Assembly (NCBI GenBank): GCA_934096945.1
Contig: CAKOND010000002.1
Span: 45,975 to 109,974 of the forward strand
Direction of reading: 5' to 3'
Origin: an uncultured Bacilli bacterium
Lineage (GTDB): Bacteria; Bacillota_I; Bacilli_A; RF39; UBA660
Length of the DNA: 64,000 bases
Shown here: positions 14,681-50,878 of the stretch, in pieces
How the letters are laid out: each line of letters opens with the position of its first letter
How positions within the stretch are numbered: position 1 is the first letter of the stretch
Program-made: the position numbers and the translations under genes
The notes under the pieces: model-generated
Database searches by the model: none
The model's input: the letters and a program-made list of their open reading frames with translations, nothing else
What the model was told of the DNA's origin: nothing

Positions 14681-14691
14681 ATTTTAATAAA

Positions 14692-14775
14692 TGGTGGGGA
14701 GACATAGATTTGAACTATGGAACCCGAAGGAACAGATTTACAGTCTGCCGCGTTTGACCACTTCGCTATCTCCCC
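14692..14775 (-). tRNA. tRNA-Tyr(GUA)
   Basis: Anticodon loop CTGTAAA, long variable arm, CCA encoded. Confidence 0.9.
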
Positions 14776-14782
14776 AAAAAAA

Positions 14783-15099
14783 TGGTGCCGACAGAGAGAG
14801 TCGAACTCCCAACCTACTGATTCATACTACTATAGTTTTCACTACCACATATGTGTTTGTAGTCTGGACTTTCTCTTAACCATATTCGTTAAAGAACTTA
14901 GGCTCATCGTATAAAGTCTCTACACTTGGTTATACAACCTAGCTCGGGATTGTCATATAATAATATTTATTATGAAGAGTTCCCCGAATTAGCGATGTCC
15001 ACCTTAATTGTTTCCAACTAAGGGTGCAAGATAGTTCAAAAAAGTATATATTACTTCTATCCCACAAGTCAGTTGCGCTGCCAGTTACGCTATGTCGGC
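14783..15099 (-). tRNA. tRNA-Thr(UGU) interrupted by a group I intron after anticodon position 36
   Basis: The 5' exon is 15064..15099 (GCCGACATAGCGTAACTGGCAGCGCAACTGACTTGT) and the 3' exon is 14783..14822 (AATCAGTAGGTTGGGAGTTCGACTCTCTCTGTCGGCACCA). Joined, they give a 76-nt cloverleaf closely resembling Firmicute tRNA-Thr(UGU). Confidence 0.85.
14823..15063 (-). ncRNA. group I intron (241 nt, IC3-like, no ORF)
   Basis: The 5' exon ends in U, paired as a U-G wobble to an internal guide GCA. Helices: P2 CCUUAGUUG-GAAA-CAAUUAAGG, P3 CAUCG/CGAUG, P4 UCGGG/CCCGA, P6 GGUU-GUAU-AACC, P7 GACUUU/AAAGUC. The GUGUAGAGACU element resembles the Azoarcus tRNA-Ile intron. The intron ends in G. Confidence 0.8.
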
Positions 15100-15114
15100 A
15101 AAATATAAATAAAA

Positions 15115-15191
15115 TGGTGGGCGCTATAGGACTCGAACCTATGACATCCTGCTTGTAAGGCAGACACTCTAACCAACTGAGTTAAGCGCCC
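15115..15191 (-). tRNA. tRNA-Val(UAC)
   Basis: Anticodon loop CTTACAA; CCA encoded. Confidence 0.9.
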
Positions 15192-15351
15192 ATGTCTCGA
15201 TGACAATTAAGATTATACCAGAAGGCAGACGCAAATGCAAGTAATTTTTACAAATTTTATCTATTTTTTTAATAATTCTTATTATATTGGCATATTTTAA
15301 ATAATTTTTTTGTAAATTATTCGTAATCTTATGTATTTTTTTTGTATATTT

Positions 15352-15447
15352 TTTGAAAATAAAAAGAAGAAAGTTGTCGTACTCCTTCTTTGTGGATAGA
15401 ATCCACTTTCTCCAATTAATGCTTGGTAAAGGAATTATTTCCTTTAC
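15352..15447 (-). ncRNA. candidate small RNA (about 95 nt) between the two tRNA clusters
   Basis: On the minus strand an extended -10 TGTTAAAAT (15455..15463) lies 7-8 nt upstream. Three hairpins follow (gtaaaggaa/ttcctttac, gtggat/atccac, agaag/cttct), then a T-run. Confidence 0.35.
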
Positions 15448-15603
15448 ATATACTATTTTAACATATTTGAAAAAAAATACTAGTCTTTTTTTGAATATTT
15501 GTAAAATAATTTTTGTTTTACTTTAGATTTTGTAGTTTTATGCTTTTAGCTGCCAATTTTTTTGTTTTTTTTAAATAGTTTCTTTAAGGACTAGGGGTTG
15601 CAT

Positions 15604-15636
15604 GAAAAAAACTAGGTTATCCTAGTTTTTTGTTTC
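15604..15636 (-). terminator. terminator after tRNA-Pro
   Basis: aaaaactagg-ttat-cctagttttt with a T-run on the minus strand. Confidence 0.65.
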
Positions 15637-15641
15637 AAATC

Positions 15642-15718
15642 TGGTCGAGAAGACAGGATTTGAACCTGCAACCCCTAGGTCCCAAACCTAGTGCACTACC
15701 AAATTGTGCTACTTCTCG
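15642..15718 (-). tRNA. tRNA-Pro(UGG)
   Basis: Anticodon loop TTTGGGA; CCA encoded. Confidence 0.9.
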
Positions 15719-15737
15719 AAAATATTTATAAAAAAAT

Positions 15738-15814
15738 TGGTACGCCCAAAGGGATTCGAACCCCCAACCTTTAGATCCGTAGTCTAACGCTCTATCCAGT
15801 TGAGCTATGGGCGC
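15738..15814 (-). tRNA. tRNA-Arg(ACG)
   Basis: Anticodon loop CTACGGA; CCA encoded. Confidence 0.9.
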
Positions 15815-16027
15815 GTATTCTTCTAGTGCATTTACATTATATTACAATAATTCTATTAAAGTCAATATTTTATGCCAATTTTTTTCTTATTTTTGTCTTT
15901 TTAAATGTTTTTCTTTATATTTTTTCTTTTAAATTTAAATTTTTTCATAAAAAAACAATAAAATTTGCAAAAAAATAAACAAATTCGATGCTCGTGACAA
16001 AAAACAGCAAATTTCGCGTTTTCGAAG

Positions 16028-16036
16028 TGCTATAAT
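16028..16036 (+). promoter_or_regulatory. extended -10 TGCTATAAT only 8 nt upstream of the endonuclease ATG (leaderless arrangement)
   Basis: gtgctataataattaactATG, with no SD in between. Confidence 0.5.
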
Positions 16037-16044
16037 AATTAACT

Positions 16045-16857
16045 ATGAAGCCAAAAATAGAAGAAAATGTAAAAAAATTATTGATTGAGTTTTATTTAAT
16101 CCAATGTAAAGGTTGGGTAAAGAGCCAAGGAAAAGGTACAAGTGCTGCTGGAACAACACTAGAGTACCTACTAGGTAAGAAGGAGGATGCAAAATCTTTA
16201 CCAGACTATTACGGAATTGAGTTAAAAACTAAACTCGCTACAAGCACATATCCAATTAGGCTATTTAGTGCTGTTCTTGATAACAGACCTAATGTGATGA
16301 ATGAGCTTTATGAAAAGTGTTCTTGGAAAAGAACTCGTAACGAAGGTGAAAGAGAATTATATGACTTTATTAATGCCACAAAATTTTCTAATACCCATCG
16401 AAAGTATGCTTTTAAATTGAATGTTGATCGCAAGAAAAAACGCGTTGATCTTCTTTTATACAATAATTGGGATAAAAAAATGGTAAATAACAATATGTCT
16501 TGGTCATTTGATGAACTTGAATTAAGGTTAACAACCAAGTTATCATGTCTAGCAATTATTCATGCGTGGAAAAAAACTTTAAAATCTACAAATTCTGAAT
16601 ATTTTAAATATACCAATATGAATTTGTATTATTTAAAATCTTTCAAAAATTTTATTGATTTACTGGAAAACGGAAAAATTGGAGTGGATCTTAAAATGTA
16701 TCCGTATTATACTGGAGAAAACCGAGGCAAACTTCGTAACCGCGAAACAACATTTGTCATAAGTGAAGAAGACATTCCATTATTATTTGATAAAATAGAT
16801 TTAAAAGTAAATGATATTGTAAAGGAAACTCCTAAAGAAGAAAATAAACAAATTTAA
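16045..16857 (+). CDS. MvaI/BcnI-family (MutH/Sau3AI-like) type II restriction endonuclease, solitary
   Basis: GTSAAGTTLEYLLGKKED..LPDYYGIELKT and C-terminal GKIGVDLKMY...RGKLRNRETTFVI parallel the BcnI motifs GQILE..GDLGEFELKG and VLVMDLC...GPHDRGPHLRI. Confidence 0.75.
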   Translation: MKPKIEENVKKLLIEFYLIQCKGWVKSQGKGTSAAGTTLEYLLGKKEDAKSLPDYYGIELKTKLATSTYPIRLFSAVLDNRPNVMNELYEKCSWKRTRNEGERELYDFINATKFSNTHRKYAFKLNVDRKKKRVDLLLYNNWDKKMVNNNMSWSFDELELRLTTKLSCLAIIHAWKKTLKSTNSEYFKYTNMNLYYLKSFKNFIDLLENGKIGVDLKMYPYYTGENRGKLRNRETTFVISEEDIPLLFDKIDLKVNDIVKETPKEENKQI

Positions 16858-16890
16858 ATATTTTCTTCTTTTTCTTTAATATAATTTATT

Positions 16891-17268
16891 ATGGGTGAAG
16901 ATTTAAGTCGTTTAAAAGATATAAAAATTGAAAATTATATTTGGATAATTTACATAGGTATTATTATTTTAAGTTGGTATGCAAACTGCAAAGAAACAGA
17001 CTATATTATCAATAAAAGTGAAAATTCTAAAAAACAGTACCAAGCTTTAATGATTTTAATTTTTACTATTTTACTCATTATATATTATTATTTTACAATA
17101 GATTCACACGAAGATATTAAAAAATTAACTTCTTTTGACTCAAAGAAAAAAATAATTTTGCGCTATGCTTCTTTCATTGGCTCATTTTTAATTCTAATTA
17201 GTGGGATTATATTTTTAATTATAGCTATTTTAGATGATAATATTGATACAGAAATTGCATTTAATTAA
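16891..17268 (+). CDS. small membrane protein (3 TM), unknown function
   Basis: ORF with hydrophobic helices. The SD is weak. Confidence 0.5.
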   Translation: MGEDLSRLKDIKIENYIWIIYIGIIILSWYANCKETDYIINKSENSKKQYQALMILIFTILLIIYYYFTIDSHEDIKKLTSFDSKKKIILRYASFIGSFLILISGIIFLIIAILDDNIDTEIAFN

Positions 17269-17334
17269 TATTTACAACCACCCATGTTCATAGTATAATA
17301 GTTTCAATAAAAACTTAGAAGTGGGTGTACTTTT

Positions 17335-18852
17335 ATGAATGAAAGAAAGTTTTTAAAAAATGAAGCTAAAAAGTCACTGAAAATTCATTATTTTAGAAAT
17401 ATTATTGTGGCTTTTATTTGCTCTATAATTTTATCCGGCGGTTTATCTTATACAACAAAAAACATTACAGAAGCATCAACTACATTTAATATAGTAAATA
17501 AAATAACAAACAATACTAATTTAGAATTTCCCCGAACTACAACTATAGATTCAGAATTTAATAAATCACTTCAAAGAAAAATTCAGGAAAAATATAGATA
17601 TGGTGTTCTTTCATATCTTGTCAATGAAACATTAAATAATGGTAACATAATGATTACTCTTTTTAATGGTATCAATAAGCTGATACTTGGAAATAAAATT
17701 AGTGCTGGAATAATAATCCTTATAAGTGGTTTATCTTTTTGGATTATAAATTGGCTTTTCTTTAAATCTATTGAAGTTGGTAGAAATCGTTATTTTCTTG
17801 AAAAAAGACGATATTATGAAACGAAGATTGAAAGAGTTTTGTTTCCTTATAAAATGAAAAAGACTTTTCATATAGCTTTTATTTTATTTAACAAATTTGT
17901 TTATCAGGTTTTGTGGTTTTTAACAATTATTGGTGGTTTTATAAAATACTATGAATATCGCATGATACCTTATATTTTAGCCGAAAATCCAAATATTAAA
18001 AGAAAAGACGCTTTCTTATTATCTAAAAAATTAACTAATGGTGAAAAATTCAATTTATTTAAAATGGATTTATCTTTGATTGGCTGGGATTTATTAGGAA
18101 TATTTACTTTTAGAATTAGTGAAATTTTTTATTCTGATGCTTATAAAAATTTGATTTTTAGTGAGTATTATATGAAAATTAGGAACAAATATAATTTAGG
18201 TGATTTAAATGATAGTAATCTTAATATACGGGAACCTATTTATGATGAGTATCCTTATATTAAAAATAAAAAAACAATAAAAATCGATTATAATAAAAAT
18301 TATGATTTTATTACTTATATTTTATTTTTCTTTACATTTGCTTGTTTCGGTTGGGTTTGGGAGGTTTTTTTAGAGTTTATAAAATTAGGGAGATTTGTTA
18401 ATCGTGGTACGATGTATGGCCCTTGGCTTCCAGTTTATGGTTGGGGTGGAGTATTAATTTTACTTTTACTTAAAAAATATCGTGACAAACCTTGGCTTTT
18501 ATTTATTTTAGCTTTTACGTTATGTGGAATAGTTGAATATGGTACTAGTATGTATCTTGAATATGTAAAACATTTGAAATATTGGGATTATAGTGGTTAC
18601 TTTTTAAATGTTAATGGGAGAATATGTCTTGAAGGTTTAATTTTATTTGGTCTAGGTGGTTTTGGATTTACTTATATTTTTGCACCACTTTTAGATACTG
18701 TTTATAAAAAAATTCCTAATTATATTAAAATTGCTATATGTACTATTTTAGTAGTATGCTACTTAGCTGATTTATCCTACACACATAATCATCCCAATAC
18801 AGGCATGGGTATAACGAGAAATTTTTCTATGATATTTCAATTGACTAAGTAA
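17335..18852 (+). CDS. membrane protein: DUF975-like N-terminal half fused to a 'putative ABC-transporter type IV' (PF06541-like) C-terminal half
   Basis: N-terminus RKFLKNEAKKSLKIHYF. C-terminus YGPWLPVYGWGG...EYGTS..LE...WDYS....GRICLEG. Confidence 0.7.
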   Translation: MNERKFLKNEAKKSLKIHYFRNIIVAFICSIILSGGLSYTTKNITEASTTFNIVNKITNNTNLEFPRTTTIDSEFNKSLQRKIQEKYRYGVLSYLVNETLNNGNIMITLFNGINKLILGNKISAGIIILISGLSFWIINWLFFKSIEVGRNRYFLEKRRYYETKIERVLFPYKMKKTFHIAFILFNKFVYQVLWFLTIIGGFIKYYEYRMIPYILAENPNIKRKDAFLLSKKLTNGEKFNLFKMDLSLIGWDLLGIFTFRISEIFYSDAYKNLIFSEYYMKIRNKYNLGDLNDSNLNIREPIYDEYPYIKNKKTIKIDYNKNYDFITYILFFFTFACFGWVWEVFLEFIKLGRFVNRGTMYGPWLPVYGWGGVLILLLLKKYRDKPWLLFILAFTLCGIVEYGTSMYLEYVKHLKYWDYSGYFLNVNGRICLEGLILFGLGGFGFTYIFAPLLDTVYKKIPNYIKIAICTILVVCYLADLSYTHNHPNTGMGITRNFSMIFQLTK

Positions 18853-29058: not shown

Positions 29059-29652
29059 ATGGCAAATTTAACATTTTATTATGGAACAATGGCAGTTGGG
29101 AAAACAACTAAGTTATTACAAGATCATTATAATTATTCGAAATATTTGATTAATATAGTGGTTATGAAACCTAAAGTGGATACTAAAGGAAGTAATACTG
29201 TAGTAAATAGAATTGGGGAAAATATAAAAGTAGATGTTTTAATTCCAAAGAGTGCTAATCTGCTTAGTAAAAAGTATATGAGTAAGTTTATGTATGCTGA
29301 ATTTATTTTAGTTGATGAAGCACAATTCTTAAGAAGAGAACAAATTAATCAGTTGTGGTTTATTGCTCATAAATATAATATTTCTGTTATTTGTTATGGA
29401 CTTAAAAGTAATTTTAAAGGGGATTTATTCGAAGGCTCTGAACAGCTTTTTGCTCGAAGTGATGAAAAACATGAATTAACTGTTAATTGTTTGTGTGGAA
29501 AAACAGCGATGTTTAATGCTAGACGTGTTAATGGAAAATATAGTGCAAGTGGTAAAGAGGTTGTTATTGATGGTGCAAATGATGAAGTTGAATATATTCC
29601 TCTTTGTGCTGATCATTATTTAGAATATGTTATGAATGGAAGGTATAAATAA
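29059..29652 (+). CDS. tdk: thymidine kinase
   Basis: P-loop GTMAVGKTT; C-terminal Zn ligands CLCG...CADH. Confidence 0.9.
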   Translation: MANLTFYYGTMAVGKTTKLLQDHYNYSKYLINIVVMKPKVDTKGSNTVVNRIGENIKVDVLIPKSANLLSKKYMSKFMYAEFILVDEAQFLRREQINQLWFIAHKYNISVICYGLKSNFKGDLFEGSEQLFARSDEKHELTVNCLCGKTAMFNARRVNGKYSASGKEVVIDGANDEVEYIPLCADHYLEYVMNGRYK

Positions 29653-31165: not shown

Positions 31166-31177
31166 TTTTTAAAGCTA

Positions 31178-31274
31178 GAGAAAAATCTCTGGCTTTATTC
31201 TTTTTTATGTAGTATAATTTAATTAATAAGAAAAATATTGTGTAAAACTCTTGTAAAAATTTTAAAAGTTTGAT
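31178..31274 (+). repeat. left copy of the 97-bp direct repeat flanking the 7-gene cassette (contains the glyQS terminator and a TATAAT at 31213)
   Basis: 94 of 97 positions are identical to 37099..37195, with no indels. Confidence 0.95.
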
Positions 31275-31289
31275 TATTGGAGGTACTTT

Positions 31290-31784
31290 ATGTATTTGTT
31301 AGAAGAAATAAAAAAAATAGTAGATAATGGTTCTAAGAAAATTGCTATTTTTGTGGATATGGATGGCGTTGTAGCAGATTATAGATTTGGGGAGGGTGAA
31401 AATATAAAGAATAACAAACCAGGTGTATACTTAAATAAGAGACCCATATATACTACAATAAAAAATTTGCAAATAATCAACGAAAAGATTAATTGTGAAA
31501 TGTATATGCTTAGTTCCTGCTTATATAAGGAACAAGCAAATGAAAAACAAATGTGGCTTACAAAATATATGCCATTTATTAAAGATGAAAATAAAATTTT
31601 TGCTTTGTCAAAAAATTTTGAATCTAGAAAAAAAGTTAAGATTGATAAAATAAAAGAAAAATTGTATTCTGATGAAATTGAATTAGCTATTCTAATTGAT
31701 GATACACATGATATATTATTTTTAGCATTATCAGAATTAAAAGAAAAAGTAATTCCATTTCATGTGATAACTTTGATTGATTAA
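31290..31784 (+). CDS. HAD-superfamily 5'(3')-deoxyribonucleotidase (NT5C-like)
   Basis: IAIFVDMDGVVADY (DxDxV motif) and LIDD near the C-terminus. Confidence 0.7.
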   Translation: MYLLEEIKKIVDNGSKKIAIFVDMDGVVADYRFGEGENIKNNKPGVYLNKRPIYTTIKNLQIINEKINCEMYMLSSCLYKEQANEKQMWLTKYMPFIKDENKIFALSKNFESRKKVKIDKIKEKLYSDEIELAILIDDTHDILFLALSELKEKVIPFHVITLID

Positions 31785-31797
31785 GGAGGAGAATGAT

Positions 31798-33306
31798 ATG
31801 AATTATGATGTAATAATAGATTGTTATACAGATGAACCCTCTGGATTAGGTGTACCACCATATCTAAGTGTACATTCTAGATATATAGCAGGTGTTTTAA
31901 AAAATAAGTCCATTAATTATTATTATTTAACTATTGATGATTTGCGTTTTGCAAATGGAGAAAAAAACTATAAAGATTCATATAATAAAAGAATAATAAA
32001 CAGAACAAAAAATGCTAATAACGTTTCAAAAATATTGAAAAATGCAACAAATATTTATGTGGTAATGGGATGTTTTGTTAAATATGAGTATGTATCTGCA
32101 GAGCCACCTACTTTTTTAGAAGTTGAAAAACTATTAAAAATTTTTTGCAACCAAAAAACTAATAAATTATTATTTTATTCTCTTGGAGGAAGTGAGTTAA
32201 CAAGAGAAAATGTAAGAAAAACAGTACCTAATAATTTGTTCGATGATATTATTTTTGGTAATACTTATAATTATTTTGTTGAAGAAAATGGTGATAAATT
32301 TAAACCTAATTACGATAAACTAAGACAAATTGCGATTGATTCCTCAAGTGTATTAGATCAACTAGAAAGACCAGTTATAATTGAAATAGAAACTGCTACA
32401 GGGTGTAATAGAAATCCAGGATGCTCGTTTTGTATAGAAGGAATGAGGGGATTACCACTACAATTTAGAGAAAAAGAAGATATTATAGATGAGATTAAAA
32501 GTTTATATAACAAAGGAGCCTTGTATTTTAGACTAGGAAGACAACCTAATTTTTATGCATATAAAAATTGTAATGTTGAGGAAATTGAGAATTTATTTAA
32601 AGGCATTTGGGATGTATGTCCAAATATAAAAACATTACATATAGATAATGTTAGTCCTCATAATGTAAATACGGAAGAAGGGGAAAGAATAACTGAAATT
32701 GTAGCTAAATATACTACTGCAGGAAATATTACACCATTTGGGATTGAGTCGTTTGATCCAATAATAAGAGAAAAATGTAATTTAAATGGGTCTTTGGATG
32801 ATATTCATAAGTCAATAACCATAATTAATAAGTATGGAAAAAAAAGAGAAGAAAATGGATTACCTAAATTACTTCCTGGTATTAATATAATTTATGGATT
32901 AGATGGACAAAATAAAAATACCTTAAAATATAATTTAGATAATTTTAATAAAATTTTGAATTCCGGAAATTGGGTACGAAGGGTTTTTGTTAGAAAATTA
33001 ACATCACCTTATGGAGAACAATTTGATAGTTATAGTGAAGAAGATTTGAAAGAATTTAATTTTTGGTGCAAAAAAATAGAAACTGAATTTATTGTTCCAA
33101 TGTTAAAAAAAGTTTTTCCAATTGACTTAGAAATTAGTGAGTTGAGAATGGAAATGTATAAAGATGGTAATTCGATTTTAAGGCAAATGGGAACGTGTCC
33201 AATAAGAGTTTTAATATTAAATAGTGAACTGGAATTAGATAAATTTTATAAAGTTAAGGTAGTTGGATACGTCGGTAATAGAACGATTATTGGAGATCTA
33301 ATATGA
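31798..33306 (+). CDS. radical SAM protein with N-terminal extension
   Basis: Cys triad in ETATGCNRNPGCSFCIEG. SD AAGGAGG. Confidence 0.7.
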   Translation: MNYDVIIDCYTDEPSGLGVPPYLSVHSRYIAGVLKNKSINYYYLTIDDLRFANGEKNYKDSYNKRIINRTKNANNVSKILKNATNIYVVMGCFVKYEYVSAEPPTFLEVEKLLKIFCNQKTNKLLFYSLGGSELTRENVRKTVPNNLFDDIIFGNTYNYFVEENGDKFKPNYDKLRQIAIDSSSVLDQLERPVIIEIETATGCNRNPGCSFCIEGMRGLPLQFREKEDIIDEIKSLYNKGALYFRLGRQPNFYAYKNCNVEEIENLFKGIWDVCPNIKTLHIDNVSPHNVNTEEGERITEIVAKYTTAGNITPFGIESFDPIIREKCNLNGSLDDIHKSITIINKYGKKREENGLPKLLPGINIIYGLDGQNKNTLKYNLDNFNKILNSGNWVRRVFVRKLTSPYGEQFDSYSEEDLKEFNFWCKKIETEFIVPMLKKVFPIDLEISELRMEMYKDGNSILRQMGTCPIRVLILNSELELDKFYKVKVVGYVGNRTIIGDLI

Positions 33307-33944
33307 AAAAAATAGGATTATTAATACCTAAAACCAATTTAACTGTTGAATACGAATTACAAATGCTTTTTAGTAAAGGATATTTTGATAATAAAAAAAG
33401 TGCGTTTTATACGTTTAGATTAAATTATAAAACAAGTTATAAAGAAAATAAATCGAAGTTTCTTGAAGAACTTGCTATGGATATAAATAATAAAAAAAGA
33501 GATTCAGCATATCTAGGCATAGATTATAATGCATTTTTTTGTACTACTTCAGCTATAGAAAACATGGTTGAAGAAATAAATCCGACCGTTTCATTAATTG
33601 AAGAATCAAAATTAAGGAATATAAAAAAATGTTTATTAATAACACCCTATAATAATAAATTGGGAAGAGAGATTGTAAGAGTGTTAGAAGACCATGAAAT
33701 TAAAGTTGTCAAAAATATAAATTTAGATTTAGTATGTACAACTGATTATTTTAATTATGGATTTAACAAGTTAGAAAATTTAATAAAAGAAAATTATTTA
33801 GATGAATATGGAAATATTATTATATCTTGTACAAATTTACCTACAATTAGTGTAATTGAGAGCTTGGAGAATAAGTTGAATACGCAAATTGTTTCAAGCA
33901 ATTCTAGCTTATTTGCAAAGATAAAGAGAGATAATAATATTTGA
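33303..33944 (+). CDS. Asp/Glu racemase-superfamily protein (maleate isomerase / arylmalonate decarboxylase-like)
   Basis: IGLLIPKTNLTVEYE; both catalytic-position Cys are present (FFCTTSA, ISCTNL); VSSNSS near the C-terminus. Confidence 0.7.
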   Translation: MKKIGLLIPKTNLTVEYELQMLFSKGYFDNKKSAFYTFRLNYKTSYKENKSKFLEELAMDINNKKRDSAYLGIDYNAFFCTTSAIENMVEEINPTVSLIEESKLRNIKKCLLITPYNNKLGREIVRVLEDHEIKVVKNINLDLVCTTDYFNYGFNKLENLIKENYLDEYGNIIISCTNLPTISVIESLENKLNTQIVSSNSSLFAKIKRDNNI

Positions 33945-33955
33945 AGGAGTTAAGT

Positions 33956-34717
33956 ATGACAAGGGAAGAATTTAAAAACGTTATTAATATTTGTAGTAAT
34001 CAAGAGGAGGTCAGAAATGCAGTAAAAAAAAATCACGATAATAACTTATGGTGGCCTCTTGATGTAGATGATTATAGAAAAAGGTTACTAATTGCTGGTC
34101 TTTCTACTAGAATTTCTTATAATATGATAAATAAATATAGAAAAGTAATAAATGATTTAAATAGTTACAATTATGGTGAAATCAAAAATAAGAATCAAGC
34201 TCAACTTATTGATATAATTAGAGGGTTAGGATTATCAAGTACAAGATGTAAATACTTATTATCAATGATTAGTTTTATAGAAAAGTATGATGAAGAAATA
34301 AAATTGTTGTCTAATGATGACTTAATTAAACTAATTGCTACCAATGTGAGTGGTGCATCTTATAAAGTTGCACAGTGCTGTGTTTTATATGTTAGGGGAT
34401 ATTATTCTGGTATAATGCCAGTTGATAGTGGTATGAAGGATGTAGAATTGCCTTGTTTAGGATTTGGACAATATAAAAATGCCTTGGGACATGAAATTTT
34501 AAGAAAAGAATTAGAAACATTGGTTAAAGATAATAACATGGAAAAAATAATAGAACAAAATGGATATGAAAAACTTAAAGTGGAAAATTATGACAACGCT
34601 ACATGGTTTTGTCATCTGGTTTTGGTATATTATAAACGCTTTTTTTGTAATAAACATCATCCGGAAAATTGTCCATTAAAAGAATACGTTGATGTAAAAT
34701 GTAAGTGTAGAAAATAA
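33956..34717 (+). CDS. HhH-GPD superfamily (DNA-glycosylase fold) protein with Cys-rich C-terminus
   Basis: HhH-like VSGASYKVAQCCVLY followed by PVDSG. C-terminal Cys residues: FCNKHHPENCPLKEYVDVKCKC. Confidence 0.6.
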   Translation: MTREEFKNVINICSNQEEVRNAVKKNHDNNLWWPLDVDDYRKRLLIAGLSTRISYNMINKYRKVINDLNSYNYGEIKNKNQAQLIDIIRGLGLSSTRCKYLLSMISFIEKYDEEIKLLSNDDLIKLIATNVSGASYKVAQCCVLYVRGYYSGIMPVDSGMKDVELPCLGFGQYKNALGHEILRKELETLVKDNNMEKIIEQNGYEKLKVENYDNATWFCHLVLVYYKRFFCNKHHPENCPLKEYVDVKCKCRK

Positions 34718-34733
34718 ATGGTAAAGGGAGATT

Positions 34734-35234
34734 ATGATGTTAATAGTAGAAGGTATAGATGGTGTAGGTAAAACAACTTTAGTTCAATATTTAGAAAATT
34801 ATGGAATGAAAAAATATCATTTTAATTATGATTCTCAGAATATGGATTTGTTTTCAAAGTATATGAAGGTTTTATTGGAAAATAATAGTGAATTGATATT
34901 GGATAGGTCATTTATTAGTGAAATGGTATATGGGCCTGTTATAAGAAATAAGTGTAAATTGAGTCTTGAGGAATATACTAAAATATTGCTTGCATATAGA
35001 AATGTTGGTACTCAAATTATTTATTTAACAGCTCCTAAGAAGATTTTACTAAAACGAAGAACTACTGAAAAAAATGATTATGAAATTATCATGAATTATT
35101 ATGAAGAATTAAATCAAAAGTATGATGAAATTATGAAATATTCTTCTAATTTTTTAGATGTAATTACAATAAATACTTATGAAGCTAATATTGAACAAGT
35201 TAGAAGTCAAGTAAAAAAATTGGTGAGAAAATGA
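34734..35234 (+). CDS. thymidylate-kinase-like P-loop nucleotide kinase
   Basis: IVEGIDGVGKTT P-loop and LDRSFISEMVYG (DR motif). Confidence 0.7.
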   Translation: MMLIVEGIDGVGKTTLVQYLENYGMKKYHFNYDSQNMDLFSKYMKVLLENNSELILDRSFISEMVYGPVIRNKCKLSLEEYTKILLAYRNVGTQIIYLTAPKKILLKRRTTEKNDYEIIMNYYEELNQKYDEIMKYSSNFLDVITINTYEANIEQVRSQVKKLVRK

Positions 35235-36787
35235 TTGATTTATGTTATGTAGGCAACTCTTCTAATGATAAAATTATCGTAAATGGTGAAACTTTTGATG
35301 AATTGGGAGGAAGTTGTATATATTCAAGTTTTTCTTCTAGATCTTCTTATGGTGGTAGTATTGCAATAATAAGTAAAATTGATAATGATACACAACTATT
35401 ATTGAAAAAGAAACGAATAGAGTTCTATGGTACTATTGTTAATAAAATGCCGGAGTTTTTAATTGATGAATCAAAGGCAACTTGCGAATCACGATTTTAT
35501 AATACAGATGCAATTAAATTGAAATCAAAAATTAATGTTAATTATTTGCACATATCACTACGAAGAGGTGTTGATGTTGATTCATTCATAGAGAATAAAT
35601 TATTGAATTATAATCATCTTTCAGTAGATGTAATGATACATAGTGTTGTAGATTTTATACCGATGATAGAAAAATACGTTTCAAAAATAGAAATTTTATT
35701 TTGCAATATTAATGAATATAATATAATAAGAAAATATATAAGAGATATCCCATTAGTAATAGTAACAAATGAAAATAAACCTGTTTTTGTGATAACCCCA
35801 TTTAAAACAATTAGCTATGATGTAATAAAAAATGAGAATGTTAAATCTACTACTGGTGCTGGAGATTCATTTATAGGTGGTTTTTTGTCAAAATATATAA
35901 TTAACCAGAATATAGATGAATCGGTTTCACAAGGTATTTACAATTCTAGTAAATCCATAGAAAAAATTGGTCCTTTAGTGTCTGTTCAACCATCTACAGA
36001 TAGTATTGTAAAATTAAAATTACTTCCTAATAATATTATAGTTATAGGTAATTCATGTGCTGGAAAAACAACATTTATAGATTATTTTATGAAGAATTAT
36101 GGTATATATTCGGTTATTGATGATTTAGATCCATTACTAGAAACTTTTATGTTAGATGATTTGTTATATCAAAATAGAATAGGTGAGTTTAAAAGGATAC
36201 AAAACAAACTTAAATATATTAATAATATATGGGAGGAGTATAACGATAATTTGGATGCAATAAATCCTTATACAATGCCGACAAAACATGGTAGTGGTCA
36301 CGATATAATAAGACCAATTTTATGGGATTATATAATTCAAATGGCTACTAAAAATTCAGAACGTCATAATATAATACAATTTTCAAGAGGTAGAGATGAA
36401 CTATATGAATCTCAATTTTTAGAAAATGCATATTCTCGTAGTATAGGGGGGTTTATCAATAATTTGGAAAATAATAACAATTCTATAATTATTAATTTGG
36501 TTTCAGACTTAAAAACAAGAAAAAATAGAAATATAATTAGATTTAAAAATGGGGGACATTATGTTTCAGACGATACTATGAATAAAGTGTATTCAAAAGA
36601 CATATTTAAATATGTAAAGACTGGTAAAAGTTTTGGCTATTTTATGGTTTTGGAAAAAATTATTCCAGTATATACTATTATTAACGATAAAACGCTTAAT
36701 AAGATTGATTTAGATAAATTTTTAGAGTATAATGTTAATAGGGTATTAGAATATTACAATAAATTTAAGGAGGAAACATGGAGCTAA
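35231..36787 (+). CDS. two-domain protein: PfkB (ribokinase-like) kinase fused to a second P-loop kinase-like domain
   Basis: TTGAGDSFIGGF PfkB signature around aa 205; second-domain Walker A VIGNSCAGKTTF. Confidence 0.65.
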   Translation: MIDLCYVGNSSNDKIIVNGETFDELGGSCIYSSFSSRSSYGGSIAIISKIDNDTQLLLKKKRIEFYGTIVNKMPEFLIDESKATCESRFYNTDAIKLKSKINVNYLHISLRRGVDVDSFIENKLLNYNHLSVDVMIHSVVDFIPMIEKYVSKIEILFCNINEYNIIRKYIRDIPLVIVTNENKPVFVITPFKTISYDVIKNENVKSTTGAGDSFIGGFLSKYIINQNIDESVSQGIYNSSKSIEKIGPLVSVQPSTDSIVKLKLLPNNIIVIGNSCAGKTTFIDYFMKNYGIYSVIDDLDPLLETFMLDDLLYQNRIGEFKRIQNKLKYINNIWEEYNDNLDAINPYTMPTKHGSGHDIIRPILWDYIIQMATKNSERHNIIQFSRGRDELYESQFLENAYSRSIGGFINNLENNNNSIIINLVSDLKTRKNRNIIRFKNGGHYVSDDTMNKVYSKDIFKYVKTGKSFGYFMVLEKIIPVYTIINDKTLNKIDLDKFLEYNVNRVLEYYNKFKEETWS

Positions 36788-37077
36788 AAAAAATTCAAAA
36801 AGATATTTGGCAAAATAAATTAAATAAGGGATTCAATACAACTGATGTGAACAAAGAGTTTTGTTTATTATATGGAGAAGTAGCTGAAGCATATGATGCT
36901 TGGAAAAAGAAAAAAGAAGATTTAAATGAAGAATTGGCTGATATTGCTATTTATTTGATGGGATTATCTGAAATGTTAGGGTTTGACTTAGAAGACGAAA
37001 TAGAAAAGAAAGTTTCTAAAAATGCAAAACGTGTGTATAAAAATATAAATGGCGTTAATGTACGCATAAGTGACTAA
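36778..37077 (+). CDS. MazG-like all-alpha NTP pyrophosphohydrolase
   Basis: LLYGEVAEAYDAW...EELADIAIYLMGL...KNAKR pattern. Confidence 0.7.
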   Translation: MELKKIQKDIWQNKLNKGFNTTDVNKEFCLLYGEVAEAYDAWKKKKEDLNEELADIAIYLMGLSEMLGFDLEDEIEKKVSKNAKRVYKNINGVNVRISD

Positions 37078-37098
37078 TCTTGAAACCTTTTAAAACTG

Positions 37099-37195
37099 GA
37101 GAAAAATCTCTGGTTTTATTCTTTTTTCTCTAGTATAATTTAATTAATAAGAAAAATATTGTGTAAAACTCTTGTAAAAATTTTAAAAGTTTGAT
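37099..37195 (+). repeat. right copy of the 97-bp direct repeat (carries the promoter in front of sepF)
   Basis: See 31178..31274. Confidence 0.95.
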
Positions 37196-39224: not shown

Positions 39225-39300
39225 TGGTGTCCCCTCAGGGATTCGAACCCTGGACCCATTGATTAAGAGTCAATTGCTCTACCAACTGAGCTAAGGAGAC
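39225..39300 (-). tRNA. tRNA-Lys(CUU)
   Basis: Anticodon loop CTCTTAA; CCA encoded. Confidence 0.9.
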
Positions 39301-39425
39301 AAAAACGTTCCTAAGAACAAATAGATTATATCAAAAACTTATTCATAATGCAAGGATTTTGAGAAAAATAATTGTTAATATTGAATAAAAATGTTATACT
39401 TAGTAAAAGAATAGGAATGGTTGTT

Positions 39426-41153
39426 ATGTTTGGTAAGATTAAAAAAATAGATAATAATGAAGTTACAATTGAAAATATATCTGGTAAAGCCATATCTAGT
39501 TTAATGAACTGTCATGTGATATTTTTAGAAAATAATCGAAAAATAGTGGGTGAAATAATTTATATTGATGAAATAGAGGCTAAAATTCTTTTAGTAGGTG
39601 AAATAATTGATAATAAGTTTCATGCTGGAATTATAAAGAAACCTAGTGGTATATCTGAGGTTAGAGTTATTACAAAAGATGAGCTTGAACTTATTATTGG
39701 AAGTAGCATTATTTTGAAGGAAAATTTATTACTGGGCTCTTCAGCAATATATAAAAACTTTAATGTGTCTGTATCCCTTAACGATATATTTGCAAATCAT
39801 TTAGCAGTAATAGGAAATACTGGTTCTGGGAAGTCTTGTGGGGTTGCTAGAATGCTTCAAAATTTATTTTTTATAAATAAACCAATTAATTCTCATATAG
39901 TTTTATTTGATGCTTATGGTGAATATGTTGATACTTTTAAAACTATAAATGATATGAATTTAAAATTTGTAAGTTATTCGGGAAATTCAAAAAATGAGAA
40001 AGAACTTCAACTTAAGTTTCCTGCTTGGTTTTTAGATGTTGATGATTTAGCTTTGCTTCTTTCCGTTACAAGTTCTGATCAATTACCTGTTCTCAAGAAA
40101 ACATTAAAGTTAGTTAAAATTTTTAAGGGTAATAGTCCAGAGATGAAAAAATATAAAAATGATATTATAGCTAAGTGTTTAATGGATGTTTTAACAAGTG
40201 GAAGACCATCAACGACGATGCGTGACCAAATAATTGCGGTTTTATCACATTATAATACTGATGATTTAAATTTAGAGTCAATTATACATCAACCTGGATA
40301 TGATAGAACTTTTAGACAATGTCTTTTAATTGATGACTCAGGAAAAATGAATGCTATTTATGAAGTTATGAATTTTTTGCAACAATTTGAACATATAGAT
40401 TTGGAAAGTATAGATATTGTTGATGCTATGTGTTATTCTTTGGAAGATTTGTATAATGCCTTGGAATTTTCTTTGATAAGTGAAGGAACTATAAATAATG
40501 ATGCTATTTATAAAGAAATGAATATTTTAAAAGTTAGACTTCAAAATATTATAAATAGTAATAATAAATATATATTTAATTTGGATGAATATATTGGTAA
40601 AGAAGAATTTGTAAGAAATATGTTTGTTAAAAATAATCTAGTTAATATTGATTTAAGTGATGTAGATGATGAATTTGCTAAAGTATTAACTAAAATATAT
40701 AGTAAACTTTTATTTAATTATACAACTTCATTAGATAAAAGAGGCAGTTTGTCATTTAATATTATTTTGGAAGAAGCCCATAGATATGTTCAAAATGATA
40801 ATGATATAAATGTAATTGGTTATAACATATTTGATAGAATTACTAAAGAAGGAAGAAAGTATGGAACACTTCTTACATTTATTACGCAAAGACCTAGTGA
40901 ACTATCTACGACTGCTTTAAGTCAATGTGCTAATTTTATTGTTTTTAGGGTATTTCATCCAGCAGACTTAGAGATTGTTAGAACAATGAGCACTAATGTA
41001 TCAAAGGCTAATATTGAGCAAATTAAATCATTATCACCTGGTTCTGCTTATGCTTTTGGTGTAGGCTTTAAAATACCAACATTAGTTAATTTTGAAATGC
41101 CAAATCCTGTTCCTGAGAGTACAAGTGTTAATGTTAAAAATATTTGGTTTTAA
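39426..41153 (+). CDS. HerA-like (DUF87) P-loop ATPase
   Basis: N-terminal barrel-like region, Walker A GNTGSGKS, IILEEAHRY, FITQRPSEL. Confidence 0.75.
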   Translation: MFGKIKKIDNNEVTIENISGKAISSLMNCHVIFLENNRKIVGEIIYIDEIEAKILLVGEIIDNKFHAGIIKKPSGISEVRVITKDELELIIGSSIILKENLLLGSSAIYKNFNVSVSLNDIFANHLAVIGNTGSGKSCGVARMLQNLFFINKPINSHIVLFDAYGEYVDTFKTINDMNLKFVSYSGNSKNEKELQLKFPAWFLDVDDLALLLSVTSSDQLPVLKKTLKLVKIFKGNSPEMKKYKNDIIAKCLMDVLTSGRPSTTMRDQIIAVLSHYNTDDLNLESIIHQPGYDRTFRQCLLIDDSGKMNAIYEVMNFLQQFEHIDLESIDIVDAMCYSLEDLYNALEFSLISEGTINNDAIYKEMNILKVRLQNIINSNNKYIFNLDEYIGKEEFVRNMFVKNNLVNIDLSDVDDEFAKVLTKIYSKLLFNYTTSLDKRGSLSFNIILEEAHRYVQNDNDINVIGYNIFDRITKEGRKYGTLLTFITQRPSELSTTALSQCANFIVFRVFHPADLEIVRTMSTNVSKANIEQIKSLSPGSAYAFGVGFKIPTLVNFEMPNPVPESTSVNVKNIWF

Positions 41154-48907: not shown

Positions 48908-50878
48908 ATGGATAAATTACGCGTTAAAATAAAAAAAATCCTGAATAAAGATGTAACAAATCTTTTAAATAAATATAAAGTCCTACTTGTAAGCGTTGCT
49001 ATAGTAGTAATTTTGGCATGTGTGGGATTAATAGTTTCATATGCATTCTATCAAGTTATTGATACTACCCCAGTAATTCTAAGTACAACACCTCAAATAC
49101 CAGATTTAGATGTAAGAATTATGGCTGAAGATCGAGATACCAATGGAAATGGTGTTAATAGTTATTCAGTTTACCCTTATATTCCTAGAGCTGGTTATAA
49201 GTATGATGCAAGTATGAGTTATTGTACAAATGGGGCATCTATAACATATAATGCAGATACTTTTGATGCTAGTATTGATGCTACTGGACACGATGTTTGT
49301 TATTTGTATTTTAAATCTACTGCAAGTTTGGATATTACTTTAGAAGTTTATGCTGAAAATGTTGATAGTGATGGAATAGGCAATGGAGTTTATACAAAAC
49401 TTGAAACAACTGCTCTTCCTTCTGTGGGTTATGAATTTAATAGTGGTAAATCTTATTGTGTTTATGCAGATGATTTGAATACACAAGTAAGTGATACAAC
49501 TGTAACCTATAATTCTGAAAAACAAAACTTTACTGTAAATACTAGTAAAAAAGGAGCAATATGTAAAGCTTATATGGATGCTATGGATGTGGATATTGCC
49601 TTAAAAATATACGTTCAATCTAAAAAAGGATCTTCTTCGTATTTTGAAGTAGATAAAATACCTGCTAATACATTTTATGAAATTGGGGCAAAATCTGCAT
49701 GTACTGGTACTTCAACAATGACTATGAAAAATCAAAAAGTTATAATTGCAGCAACTAATAGAACTAATTGTGTTGCATATTTAGATGTTGGTTCTGGTCC
49801 AATTCTTGAAAGTATGCAAAACAGTGTTAATGGTCAAAATGTAACAATAACACTTACAAATAGCAATATTGGAGTGACACCACAAACATATTATTATTCA
49901 AAAGATAATGGCGTAACGTATGTGACTAGTACACAAAATAGTTATACTTTTACCAATTTAACTCCACTTACAGATTTTACTTTTAAAGCTTATTCTGTGG
50001 ATGCTGCAGGAAATACATCTGGTATTTTAACAACAACAGCAACAACTGATTATGTATTAAATAAACCATTTGCTTACTCCAATGCTGTTCAATCATTTAC
50101 TACAAAAGTTGACGGATATTATAAGATGCAAGTTTGGGGTGCACAGGGTGGTAGTTATTCTTCTTATAATGGTGGTGCTGGTGGTTATAGTGAAGGAGTT
50201 GTTTATTTAACTGCTGGAACTAATTTATATGTATATGTAGGTGGTCAACCAACATCGACTTCGTCCACATCAGCTGCAATAACGGGTGGTTTTAATGGTG
50301 GTGGTCAAGCAAGAGTTCACTCTTATTCTGGTACAACTTCTTATTCTCAAGCAGGTGGAGGTGCGTCTGACTTTAGAATTGGTACAGACTCATTATATGC
50401 TCGAGTTATTGTTGCCGGAGGTGGTGGTGGTTCTTCAAGTATAGATGCCTTAACTACAAAATATGGTGGAGGTTCATCAGGTGGTTCTCCAAGTTCGGCA
50501 TTTGCTGCATCACAAACTGCCGGTGGAACCAATGGTACATTTGGGACAGGCGCTAATGGATATATTAGTGGTTATAATTATAAATATGCTTCTGGTGGTG
50601 GAGGCGGTGGCTGGTATGGCGGCGGTGCTGTAAATGCTCAATCCGATACCGCTACAGATTATCTTAATCAAAATGGTGGAGGTTCTGGATATGTTTATAC
50701 GTCAAGTACTGCGGCAAATTATCCATCAGGTTGTTTATTAAATAGTTCATATTATTTAATTAATGCTTCAACTATTGCTGGTAATACATCATTTCCATCA
50801 CCAACTGGTGGTACTGAAACTGGACATACTGGAAATGGGTATGCTTATCTAACATACGTAGGAAGGGAATTAAGCTAA
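48908..50878 (+). CDS. membrane-anchored surface protein: three Cys-pair modules, FN3-like module, C-terminal glycine-rich domain
   Basis: TM segment near aa 25-45; repeated ..GY.....S.C.......C..Y. modules; YYYSKDNGVTYVTSTQNSYTFTNL; WGAQGG...GGAGGY..G....AGT.LYVYVGG and GGGGGW tracts. Confidence 0.75.
   Translation: MDKLRVKIKKILNKDVTNLLNKYKVLLVSVAIVVILACVGLIVSYAFYQVIDTTPVILSTTPQIPDLDVRIMAEDRDTNGNGVNSYSVYPYIPRAGYKYDASMSYCTNGASITYNADTFDASIDATGHDVCYLYFKSTASLDITLEVYAENVDSDGIGNGVYTKLETTALPSVGYEFNSGKSYCVYADDLNTQVSDTTVTYNSEKQNFTVNTSKKGAICKAYMDAMDVDIALKIYVQSKKGSSSYFEVDKIPANTFYEIGAKSACTGTSTMTMKNQKVIIAATNRTNCVAYLDVGSGPILESMQNSVNGQNVTITLTNSNIGVTPQTYYYSKDNGVTYVTSTQNSYTFTNLTPLTDFTFKAYSVDAAGNTSGILTTTATTDYVLNKPFAYSNAVQSFTTKVDGYYKMQVWGAQGGSYSSYNGGAGGYSEGVVYLTAGTNLYVYVGGQPTSTSSTSAAITGGFNGGGQARVHSYSGTTSYSQAGGGASDFRIGTDSLYARVIVAGGGGGSSSIDALTTKYGGGSSGGSPSSAFAASQTAGGTNGTFGTGANGYISGYNYKYASGGGGGGWYGGGAVNAQSDTATDYLNQNGGGSGYVYTSSTAANYPSGCLLNSSYYLINASTIAGNTSFPSPTGGTETGHTGNGYAYLTYVGRELS

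Follow-up and report, generated by a model that had tools for sequence, protein, structure and literature searches.

What would a bacterium do with an operon that joins a radical SAM enzyme, a DNA-glycosylase-fold protein and a two-cysteine isomerase-like protein with nucleotide kinases and nucleotide hydrolases, and how was such an operon acquired? This question is raised by seven genes at positions 31290-37077 of the window, by which we mean the whole 64,000-nucleotide stretch analysed here (contig CAKOND010000002.1 of assembly GCA_934096945.1, from an uncultured Bacilli bacterium). A preliminary description of this stretch, made from its letters and open reading frames (ORFs), proposed an undescribed pathway for nucleotide or DNA-base modification, or for nucleotide-based defence. 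Here we report that the cassette in the window is a recent, strain-specific insertion of a mobile block. We tentatively favour the reading that it is a self-contained, horizontally mobile operon that would build a non-canonical deoxynucleotide and channel it to DNA, in which case the DNA of the host or plasmid would carry a modified base.

The cassette is a genuine, tightly packed operon. Its seven ORFs all lie on the + strand (Table 1), and the close packing first described, with ATGA overlaps at 33303-33306 and 35231-35234 and a 10-nt overlap at 36778-36787, is present in the ORF coordinates. Scans with Pfam, NCBIfam, PHROGs and PADLOC reproduced the domain list that had been given for the seven genes. 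Scores in these scans were low, which marks the cassette proteins as divergent members of their superfamilies. The catalytic motifs are kept in all seven proteins as judged by eye, and the radical SAM cysteines and both cysteines of the arylmalonate-decarboxylase-like (Amdase-like) protein were also confirmed by alignment.

Insertion of the cassette between glyS and sepF

The cassette is flanked by two copies of a 108-nt direct repeat (Table 1). The left copy contains a terminator-like hairpin (31170-31197), a -10-like box (TAGTATAAT) and a leader, and the hairpin of the right copy shows a compensatory stem change (G-C to A-T). Scanning metagenome contigs with a 34-nt piece of the repeat identified 19 related contigs, all from human-gut metagenome assemblies, whose flanks are mostly 84-98% identical to the window at the nucleotide level. 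In all 19, the 108-nt segment is present as a single copy, glyS is directly joined to sepF and there is no cassette. This reveals that the window carries a 5,921-bp insertion (31275-37195), which consists of a 5.81-kb promoterless gene block and a second copy of the 108-nt intergenic segment. Nucleotide homology to the cassettes of other genomes spans ~31276 to ~37085, i.e., from the first ribosome-binding site to a few bases beyond the last stop codon, with 85% identity to the closest copies, and the closest relative of the radical SAM protein is 89% identical. As the cassette is far more diverged from its other copies than the flanks are, its source was probably a more distant lineage. The duplicated segment holds the glyS terminator hairpin and the sepF promoter, so that the cassette gains a promoter while sepF retains its own.

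Duplications of local sequence, which differs from site to site, also surround the cassette at six further loci (L001, 151 nt; L002, 51 nt; L005, 150 nt; L033, 184 nt; L049, 116 nt; L084, 57 nt). The duplication in L001 spans the 5' part of an acylphosphatase gene, of which a truncated copy lies upstream and an intact copy downstream of the cassette. Pfam scans matched no integrase, transposase or recombinase family in the seven cassette genes or in the genes that flank them in the window. The known classes of mobile element that we considered (integrase, transposase, integron cassette) were rejected, as the cassette has no recombinase of its own and the duplications are 51-184 nt of local sequence. 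A promoterless block with exact ends and long local duplications suggests that operons can move between genomes in a way that has been little studied.

The glyS-sepF spacer itself looks like a variable site, since some related strains carry a different insert of ~935 bp there (L101 6236-7169, L102 7064-8000 and L104 2159-3126). Its product is a membrane-anchored hypothetical protein, 285 aa long in L102 and split into two ORFs in L101.

Elsewhere, the cassette is present on four Streptomyces replicons recorded as plasmids. In L084 it has recombinase, relaxase-type and coupling-protein genes on one side and a type I restriction-modification system on the other, and in L085 it adjoins Mrr_cat and UvrD-like genes. 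When 114 flanking proteins of 13 loci were classified with Pfam, housekeeping functions prevailed, with no enrichment of defence genes. YfbR-like HD_3 genes were found among these flanks, and Y-family polymerase genes flank two of the loci.

Conservation and gene-content variants

The protein collection contains over 2,000 relatives of the radical SAM protein, and 573 were found in a scan of species-representative genomes. We inspected the neighbourhoods of the 80 best loci of these relatives, together with contigs fetched by identity. Among 83 loci of radical SAM relatives, iterated profiles placed the Amdase-like protein at 48, the HhH protein at 43, the small kinase at 45 and PfkB at 43, counts that are approximate because the profiles drifted across fused proteins. 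An NT5C-type gene adjoins the radical SAM gene in 35 loci. At the inspected loci, bacterial radical SAM relatives down to ~41% identity all had the same partners. More distant archaeal-type relatives (34-40% identity) stood without them, save for a possible PfkB-like gene near L047; likewise, the iterated profiles found no partner genes at the archaeal-type or distant loci L051-L083, except at L078, which is a fragment of a close relative. A lone radical SAM homologue is common in DPANN archaea, and Natronorubrum has a lone 575-aa copy that adjoins a TRAM protein. No conserved partner was seen in the archaeal neighbourhoods, where the lipid genes that recur in some DPANN loci probably reflect local synteny.

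The core set consists of the radical SAM enzyme, the two-Cys protein, the HhH protein, the small kinase and PfkB; a second P-loop kinase is frequent, but not universal. In variable order, this set occurs in gut Bacilli, Alphaproteobacteria, Gastranaerophilales, Patescibacteria, Chloroflexi, Kordiimonas and Streptomyces, and thus in at least five bacterial phyla. Conservation of the gene neighbourhood had been named in the preliminary description as a check on its proposal, and the cassette is indeed kept as a unit across phyla.

Around this core, the hydrolases are interchangeable. MazG alternates with a gene of the Ham1/ITPase family, which is found in the alphaproteobacterial-type cassette (L002, L043, L036), and NT5C is substituted by a HAD domain fused to a kinase, by a YfbR-like HD_3 protein or by a protein with a nucleoside 2-deoxyribosyltransferase domain. 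Fusions between partners are common. A fusion of the HhH protein with the kinase is the commonest form among diverse representatives, many of them 430-453 aa long, and the fusion of kinase and HAD domains was confirmed. Profile labels suggest two more, PfkB with a P-loop kinase and MazG in L023 (616 aa) and kinase/HAD with PfkB in L050. The PfkB and second-kinase halves that are fused in the window are separate genes in L002, L031, L037 and L043.

Some variants carry additional genes. A Chloroflexi metagenome-assembled genome has a thymidylate-synthase-family gene inside its cassette (L042 13574-14317, E 6e-16), whose product has, by eye, Ser at the position of the catalytic Cys and Asp at the position of Asn177. 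The change of Asn177 to Asp in thymidylate synthase is seen in dCMP hydroxymethylases. The alphaproteobacterial-type cassette (L043 6548-6886, L049, L002, L040, L046) opens with a gene for a 112-aa protein that Pfam did not detect; its profile matched PDB entries 2z0t (PH0355) and 1s04 (PF0455), which we take to be ASCH (PUA-like) domain proteins. A weak QueC-like gene is present in L084 and only there. In a related gut species (L087-L089, 5742-8392), a WYL-domain regulator and a 661-aa PfkB protein precede the cassette; the latter has a weak GlmS-type (SIS) isomerase-like region and resembles ribose-1-phosphate kinases and fructokinases. The cassette of the Streptomyces sp. NBC_01456 plasmid (L110) lies at 12293-18742 of the record, ~12 kb from the end of a replicon recorded as linear. 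It includes a 317-aa protein with a nucleoside 2-deoxyribosyltransferase domain, and a Methyltransf_19 gene comes next after it. The C-terminal 200 aa of this deoxyribosyltransferase protein, which have no assignment, do not supply the second kinase that this version lacks. The cassette is carried by four sequenced strains of Streptomyces from the NBC collection (NBC_01456, NBC_01454, NBC_01304 and NBC_01237), and as these are culturable, the question of its function is directly testable.

In the window, a thymidine kinase gene (29059-29652) precedes the cassette by two genes. Thymidine kinase homologues also precede the cassettes of L005, L008 and L029, by ~4-5 kb and in flanks that are otherwise unrelated.

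The signature proteins carry only generic names in public records ('radical SAM protein', 'Fe-S oxidoreductase, putative', 'hypothetical protein' and 'hhH-GPD superfamily base excision DNA repair protein'), and keyword searches of the literature found no description of this gene set. The earlier statement that no described bacterial chromosomal operon of this composition was known thus stands as far as description goes, but 'chromosomal' is only half right, given the mobile insertion in the window and the copies on plasmids.

The radical SAM protein

The radical SAM protein matched the Pfam Radical_SAM family with E 1e-8. Its ORF encodes 509 aa from TTG 31777, but most homologues are 499-503 aa long and align from the second Met, which makes 31798 the likely start and supports the length of 502 aa that had been assigned to the enzyme. 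The cluster motif CX5CX2C corresponds to C210, C216 and C219. In the AlphaFold model (pLDDT 88, pTM 0.90), three domains are predicted: a flavodoxin-like N-domain, a radical SAM barrel and a TRAM-like C-terminal barrel. The best Foldseek matches of this model were MtaB, MiaB and RimO (E 2e-17 to 4e-14, TM 0.57-0.69, over ~530-550 columns), followed by cobalamin-type methylases and AprD4.

The cassette enzyme is thus predicted to share the full-length three-domain fold of MiaB, MtaB and RimO, but these have three Cys for an auxiliary cluster, of which the cassette enzyme, with its cluster motif CX5CX2C, keeps one. In the alignment, C16 is the only invariant Cys of the N-domain; Cys99 of the 'GC' motif is lost in 4 of 16 sequences, and the middle position is Asp-Asp. 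As only one N-domain Cys is invariant, the auxiliary cluster with which methylthiotransferases donate sulfur is not conserved. Family models agree with this: TIGR00089 scored 25.8 bits against a cut-off of 251, and neither Pfam UPF0004 nor Pfam TRAM matched. A canonical MiaB-type methylthiotransferase elsewhere in the window (12995-14425), which served as an internal control, matched UPF0004, Radical_SAM and TRAM. The archaeosine enzyme RaSEA was considered because of the JGI name of protein P0097 ('... with C-terminal HhH motif') and rejected, as no NCBIfam model named for RaSEA matched; the model that covers it is, we presume, TIGR01210. A radical SAM family with the methylthiotransferase fold and without the sulfur-donor cluster, which has standalone relatives in DPANN and other archaea, is an unexplored one.

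The HhH-GPD protein

The match of the fourth protein to the HhH-GPD family of Pfam is weak (E 0.008, 17.0 bits against a gathering score of 26.2 for PF00730), and its Streptomyces homologue, with 20.3 bits, also stays below the gathering score. Homologues are 253 aa long, so that the protein probably starts at 33956. The fold that had been assigned to it was borne out by an AlphaFold model (pLDDT 83), for which the top 50 PDB matches listed by Foldseek were all HhH-GPD DNA glycosylases or their homologues (probability up to 1.00, TM 0.32-0.49). The motif 'GASYKVAQC...MPVDSG', with K142, C146 and D162, is invariant or nearly so across phyla and aligns with the Ogg-type motif GVGPKVADC...PTD of PDB 4ejy. 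According to this alignment, the Ogg-type Lys, its partner Cys and the Asp are all present. A C-terminal cluster of Cys is formed by C236, C244, C254 and C256.

Ogg- and Endo III-type glycosylases therefore share with this protein the fold, the helix-hairpin-helix with its Asp, the K-V-A-x-C dyad and the C-terminal Cys cluster. The cassette protein differs from them in that it falls below the Pfam threshold, forms an isolated family and frequently occurs in fusions with a nucleotide kinase. Searched with a profile of this family, 1.84 billion representative proteins yielded only 116, and no ordinary glycosylases; the family was found only together with the cassette. An isolated HhH-GPD family that has an intact Ogg-type active site and travels with nucleotide kinases is likewise unexplored.

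Two-Cys protein, kinases and hydrolases

The Amdase-like protein scored just below the Pfam Amdase cut-off (E 2e-5, 24.6 bits against 25.9), and its Streptomyces homologue scored 46.6 bits on PF17645. The preliminary description had noted that both catalytic Cys are retained, and C80 and C176 proved invariant in 13 of 13 homologues from distant lineages. Two invariant thiols are the signature of the racemase/isomerase branch and not of the one-Cys decarboxylases. A racemase-type protein with two thiols that is linked to nucleotide metabolism adds a further unexplored family.

The small kinase matched the Pfam families dNK (E 4e-9) and Thymidylate_kin (E 6e-8) as well as phrog_761 (E 1e-18), and its best solved relative is YorR of SPbeta (2axp, E 3e-13). 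Fusions that join it to the HhH protein or a HAD phosphatase are found in other lineages. The small kinase also matched, over its full length, the PADLOC model VakA (E 1.6e-6), which we take to be a viperin-associated kinase. In the 518-aa protein, the PfkB match (E 1e-11) covers only residues 142-249 of a domain encoded at ~35231-36016, with the motifs 'NSSND' and 'TGAGD'; of the top eleven solved relatives, ten are adenosine kinases and one is a sugar kinase. Matches to AAA_18 and AAA_33 bear out the second P-loop kinase domain that had been proposed for this protein (~36017-36784, 'GNSCAGKTT').

The NT5C-type protein passed the cut-off of PF06941 (E 2e-6, 28.1 bits against 24.8), and its DxDxV motif reads 'DMDGV'. 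The MazG-like protein matched its Pfam family with E 1e-8 and phrog_3301 with E 1.5e-13, and an ExxE...ExxD motif was seen by eye. The best viral families (PHROGs) for the MazG-like protein, the small kinase and NT5C were phage pyrophosphatase, thymidylate-kinase and NT5C-like families, respectively.

Comparison with phage and bacterial pathways

Thymidine-hypermodification clusters of phages contain a kinase, a glycosylase-fold transferase, a radical SAM enzyme and a decarboxylase, as well as fusions of kinase and transferase (PMC8989533). The same categories of enzyme that are clustered in Pseudomonas phage M6, Salmonella phage ViI, Bacillus phage SP10 and PhiW-14 (PMC8989533, PMC5889632) are clustered in the cassette, and alike in both are nucleotide hydrolases, sometimes a thymidylate-synthase homologue, and fusions of a kinase with a glycosylase-fold protein. 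However, the phage decarboxylase depends on pyridoxal phosphate, whereas the carboxylate enzyme of the cassette is a cofactor-free protein with two thiols. PfkB and the second kinase are extra in the cassette, and its carriers are cellular chromosomes and plasmids.

Comparison of the sequences themselves did not extend this likeness. Aligned with hhalign, the HhH protein reached probabilities of 0.1% with M6 gp51 and 0.6% with gp55, and the radical SAM protein reached 0.8% with gp53. There was no Pfam match to aGPT-Pplase, and a fold search of BFVD gave only E 4.8 to an AADT-domain protein. The small kinase aligned with gp54, the 5-hmdU DNA kinase of M6 (probability 81%, E 1e-5, 106 columns), a similarity that may be no more than that of P-loop proteins in general, and it is closer to YorR, Tmk and dNK; the second kinase domain matched gp54 at the P-loop only. 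The phage toolkit to which the cassette had been likened is thus matched in enzyme categories and in kinase/glycosylase-fold fusions, but not by homology to gp51, gp55 and gp53.

A second resemblance is to the reprogramming of deoxynucleoside triphosphate (dNTP) pools. Phages that replace a base use dCTPase, dCMP hydroxymethylase and dNMP kinase in T4, and dUTPase/dTTPase, dTMP nucleotidase and hmdUMP kinase in the hmU phages. The cassette has the same combination of NTP pyrophosphatase, 5'-deoxynucleotidase and dNMP kinase. The base step is made by a thymidylate-synthase homologue in these phages, whereas the cassette, in a bacterial host, has the trio of radical SAM enzyme, two-thiol protein and HhH-GPD protein.

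Three further pathways were rejected. 7-Deazaguanine DNA modification (Dpd) was dismissed because neither DpdA/TGT-type nor preQ0-synthesis domains were found in the cassette with Pfam and NCBIfam. Replacement of ribonucleotide reductase was set aside, as one cassette has an NrdD gene beside it and sister strains do without the cassette. A folate-independent thymidylate synthase would need no radical chemistry for C5 methylation of uracil and would leave PfkB and the isomerase unexplained. Assignment of the set to a known pathway would have contradicted the preliminary description, and profile searches gave no such assignment. The cassette passes no membership test for any known pathway as a system; by its logic, it would be a variant of nucleotide or DNA modification.

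A possible route to a modified deoxynucleotide

How could these enzymes work together? PfkB and the dNK/Tmk-like kinase, with the second P-loop kinase where it is present, would phosphorylate a (deoxy)nucleoside or nucleotide step by step. Unusual chemistry on the base or its side chain would fall to the radical SAM enzyme and the two-thiol isomerase. The Ogg-type HhH-GPD protein, with the kinase to which it is often fused, would break or exchange an N-glycosidic bond, either on a nucleotide or in DNA. MazG or Ham1 and a 5'-nucleotidase (NT5C, HAD or YfbR-like) would lower the competing canonical nucleotide. Of the basis of this scheme, the sequences establish gene content, conservation, fusions, predicted folds, retained catalytic motifs and mobility; its substrates, the order of its steps and DNA as its destination are what we infer.

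Several observations speak for a deoxynucleotide route. The NT5C, HD_3, deoxyribosyltransferase, thymidylate-synthase-like and dNK/Tmk-like genes indicate 2'-deoxynucleotides, and the presence of two or three kinases indicates an anabolic direction. Through the fusions, the glycosylase-fold protein is linked with small-molecule enzymes of classical type, and the module is accessory and mobile; we therefore favour this route, if tentatively. By analogy, an accessory and mobile cassette resembles protective DNA-modification modules. The closest analogues are phage pathways that join reprogramming of the nucleotide pool with post-replicative decoration (PMC8989533), an analogy of logic only. The clues to the base itself are in conflict: the adenosine-kinase-like PfkB, Ham1, the Ogg-type active site and the MiaB/MtaB-like fold are of purine type, but the Tmk/dNK-like kinase, NT5C, the thymidylate-synthase-like Asp, the ASCH-like protein and the upstream thymidine kinase are of pyrimidine type.

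A number of results weigh against the production of a modified DNA base. Searches with the M6 gp51, gp55 and gp53 profiles found no homology to any proven DNA-hypermodification enzyme, and Pfam found no hydroxymethylase, dioxygenase (TET/JBP) or other enzyme that would install a handle on the base among the seven genes of the window. The only thymidylate-synthase-like gene, that of L042, appears by eye to encode Ser in place of the catalytic Cys. Neither a dedicated polymerase nor a modification-dependent or -sensitive restriction partner accompanies the cassette, and most loci have ordinary housekeeping flanks. The full Lys/Cys/Asp set of the HhH protein fits plain base excision equally well. 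Finally, the radical SAM and HhH proteins had no match in 50,697 phage genomes, and the radical SAM protein was absent from IMG/VR in single-sequence and profile searches. The second kinase domain had no match in the 50,697 phage genomes either. A phage origin of the cassette was rejected, as its signature proteins are absent from phage genomes and the pooled flanks are mostly housekeeping genes. Phage-like structural genes do lie near L002, and the same-type locus L046 carries an ftsY homologue.

A more specific version of the deoxynucleotide route is, in our judgement, rather doubtful. It holds that a portable pathway of cells and plasmids replaces or decorates a DNA base before replication by means of a new trio, namely a radical SAM enzyme with the methylthiotransferase fold and no auxiliary cluster, a two-thiol isomerase and a kinase-fused Ogg-type HhH-GPD protein, and that the block inserts by an undescribed route that duplicates 50-180 nt and captures a promoter. 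If a modified DNA base or an antiviral nucleotide is made, this would be new chemistry in a field so far dominated by phage systems, and it would be placed in abundant uncultured bacteria of the human gut and in culturable Streptomyces.

Alternative explanations

An antiviral nucleotide analogue made in the manner of viperin is unlikely, though it survives best among the rival explanations. Here the kinases would supply the radical SAM enzyme with an NTP or dNTP, its product would poison a polymerase, and the hydrolases would limit self-toxicity or deplete nucleotide pools. Like the cassette, prokaryotic viperins place a radical SAM enzyme beside nucleotide kinases on mobile, strain-variable DNA, and strain-variable presence and horizontal movement are typical of defence genes. 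The match of the small kinase to VakA fits this explanation, as do the restriction-modification and Mrr_cat/UvrD-like neighbours at L084 and L085. Moreover, at the archaeal locus L086 (9427-12326), a radical SAM homologue is flanked by an HD hydrolase and by a 263-aa radical SAM protein, for which the viperin family antiviral radical SAM model was the best NCBIfam match (E 3.5e-23, below the cut-off). However, the cassette enzyme belongs to another fold subgroup, methylthiotransferase-like and not viperin-like, and was matched by no viperin model of PADLOC or NCBIfam. PADLOC gave no match for the radical SAM, HhH, PfkB and NT5C-like proteins either, and only marginal ones for the Amdase-like and MazG proteins (E > 1e-3). 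The cassette has five further enzymes, and the glycosylase-fold protein and the two-thiol isomerase would be left without a role. The flanks are mostly housekeeping genes instead of defence islands, and the cassette is apparently expressed from a duplicated housekeeping promoter.

It seems less probable again that the cassette serves to salvage or sanitise a modified (deoxy)nucleoside from the environment. A kinase would convert the nucleoside to a monophosphate, the glycosylase-fold enzyme would split it, the radical SAM enzyme and the isomerase would dismantle the odd base, and the hydrolases would keep the modified nucleotide from polymerases. In pseudouridine catabolism, YeiC is a PfkB kinase and YeiN a Lys-dependent glycosidase. 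The cassette likewise combines a PfkB kinase that carries an 'NxD' sugar motif of ribokinase type with a glycosidic-bond enzyme whose Lys is conserved, but the fold of the YeiN glycosidase is unrelated and the cassette has many more parts. The hosts would suit such a function, since they are largely salvage-dependent, host-associated bacteria with reduced genomes (gut Bacilli and Tenericutes-like metagenome-assembled genomes, gut Alphaproteobacteria, Gastranaerophilales, Patescibacteria and Rickettsiales). The ASCH-like protein that heads the alphaproteobacterial version is also consistent with salvage, as some ASCH proteins hydrolyse N4-acylcytidines, and so is the PfkB-SIS protein next to the L087 cassette with its resemblance to ribose-1-phosphate kinases. 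Degradation or sanitation, however, needs no two or three kinases. The cassette variants examined yielded no transporter gene, catabolic enzymes for later steps (an aldolase or deaminase, for example) are missing, and sister strains live without the cassette.

The conserved active site of the HhH protein could instead serve a portable module for DNA repair and pool cleaning, which we regard as improbable. In this explanation, an Ogg-type glycosylase/lyase would remove a damaged base, the kinase and a phosphatase would heal the ends in the manner of PNKP, MazG or Ham1 would clean damaged dNTPs, and the radical SAM enzyme would reverse a lesion directly, like spore photoproduct lyase. The Ogg-type K-x-x-x-C dyad and Asp, together with a Cys cluster like the Fe-S loop of Endo III and MutY, agree with this, and the TRAM-like barrel of the radical SAM model would be compatible with nucleic-acid binding. 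T4 polynucleotide kinase-phosphatase has a kinase followed by a phosphatase domain, and the kinase-HAD fusion has this domain order; the Y-family polymerase genes at two loci would also fit. Yet repair has no use for PfkB or the two-thiol isomerase, and none for the deoxyribosyltransferase domain or the thymidylate-synthase-like variant. The small kinase is more like dNK, Tmk and YorR than like polynucleotide kinases, and the HhH family is tiny and bound to the cassette, unlike general repair glycosylases.

A secreted nucleoside antimetabolite, modified at the NTP level and freed by pyrophosphatase and nucleotidase with puromycin-type logic, is the least likely: several nucleoside-antibiotic pathways release their product by just such a pairing of NTP pyrophosphatase and monophosphatase, and in Streptomyces the cassette is close to the ends of plasmids that are recorded as linear, beside methyltransferase and GNAT genes, but the variants examined showed neither an exporter nor a self-resistance gene, gut bacteria with tiny genomes and Patescibacteria have the same compact set, and the window cassette has no tailoring or peptide-coupling enzymes.

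Layout of the cassette and other features of the window

Table 1. Coordinates of the cassette genes and of the repeats that flank them in the window.
Feature	Position	Strand	ORF as listed	Basis or remark
Left copy of the 108-nt direct repeat	31167-31274	+		Native glyS-sepF intergenic segment; 95% identical to 37088-37195
NT5C-type HAD-superfamily 5'(3')-deoxyribonucleotidase-like protein, 164 aa	31290-31784	+	31290-31784	PF06941
Radical SAM enzyme, 502 aa	31798-33306	+	31777-33306	ORF opens at TTG 31777; AlphaFold model, Foldseek
Asp/Glu-racemase / maleate-isomerase / arylmalonate-decarboxylase-superfamily protein, 213 aa	33303-33944	+	33303-33944	C80 and C176 invariant
HhH-GPD-fold protein, 253 aa	33956-34717	+	33941-34717	ORF opens at 33941; AlphaFold model, Foldseek
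Small P-loop deoxynucleoside / dNMP-kinase-like protein, 166 aa	34734-35234	+	34734-35234	dNK, Thymidylate_kin, phrog_761
PfkB-family kinase fused to a second P-loop kinase domain, 518 aa	35231-36787	+	35231-36787	Pfam, solved relatives
MazG-like all-alpha NTP pyrophosphohydrolase, 99 aa	36778-37077	+	36778-37077	Pfam; phrog_3301
Right copy of the 108-nt direct repeat	37088-37195	+		Hairpin and sepF promoter/leader; right end of the inserted unit

The window DNA has a GC content of ~27% and a strong GC skew, and Firmicute-type core genes surround the cassette. Upstream lie yqfD, ybeY, dgkA, era, recO and the genes for thymidine kinase and glycyl-tRNA synthetase; downstream are sepF, divIVA, tRNA-Lys, a HerA-like ATPase gene and ftsY. 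An Rfam scan of the window returned tRNAs only, with no riboswitch ahead of the cassette.

Three other regions of the window drew our attention. At 1592-8164, four consecutive ORFs of similar size (516, 549, 516 and 624 aa) adjoin a SufB/D gene. They look paralogous, and the three that were scanned gave odd short matches only (FAD_binding_4 among others), none of them significant. At 48908-50878, a 656-aa protein strongly matches the ALK/LTK glycine-rich domain (PF12810, E 3e-43), which is mainly known from receptor kinases of animals. At 39225-41153, a tRNA-Lys(CTT) on the minus strand is followed by a gene for a 593-aa HerA/FtsK-type ATPase (DUF87), an arrangement that could represent a small island.

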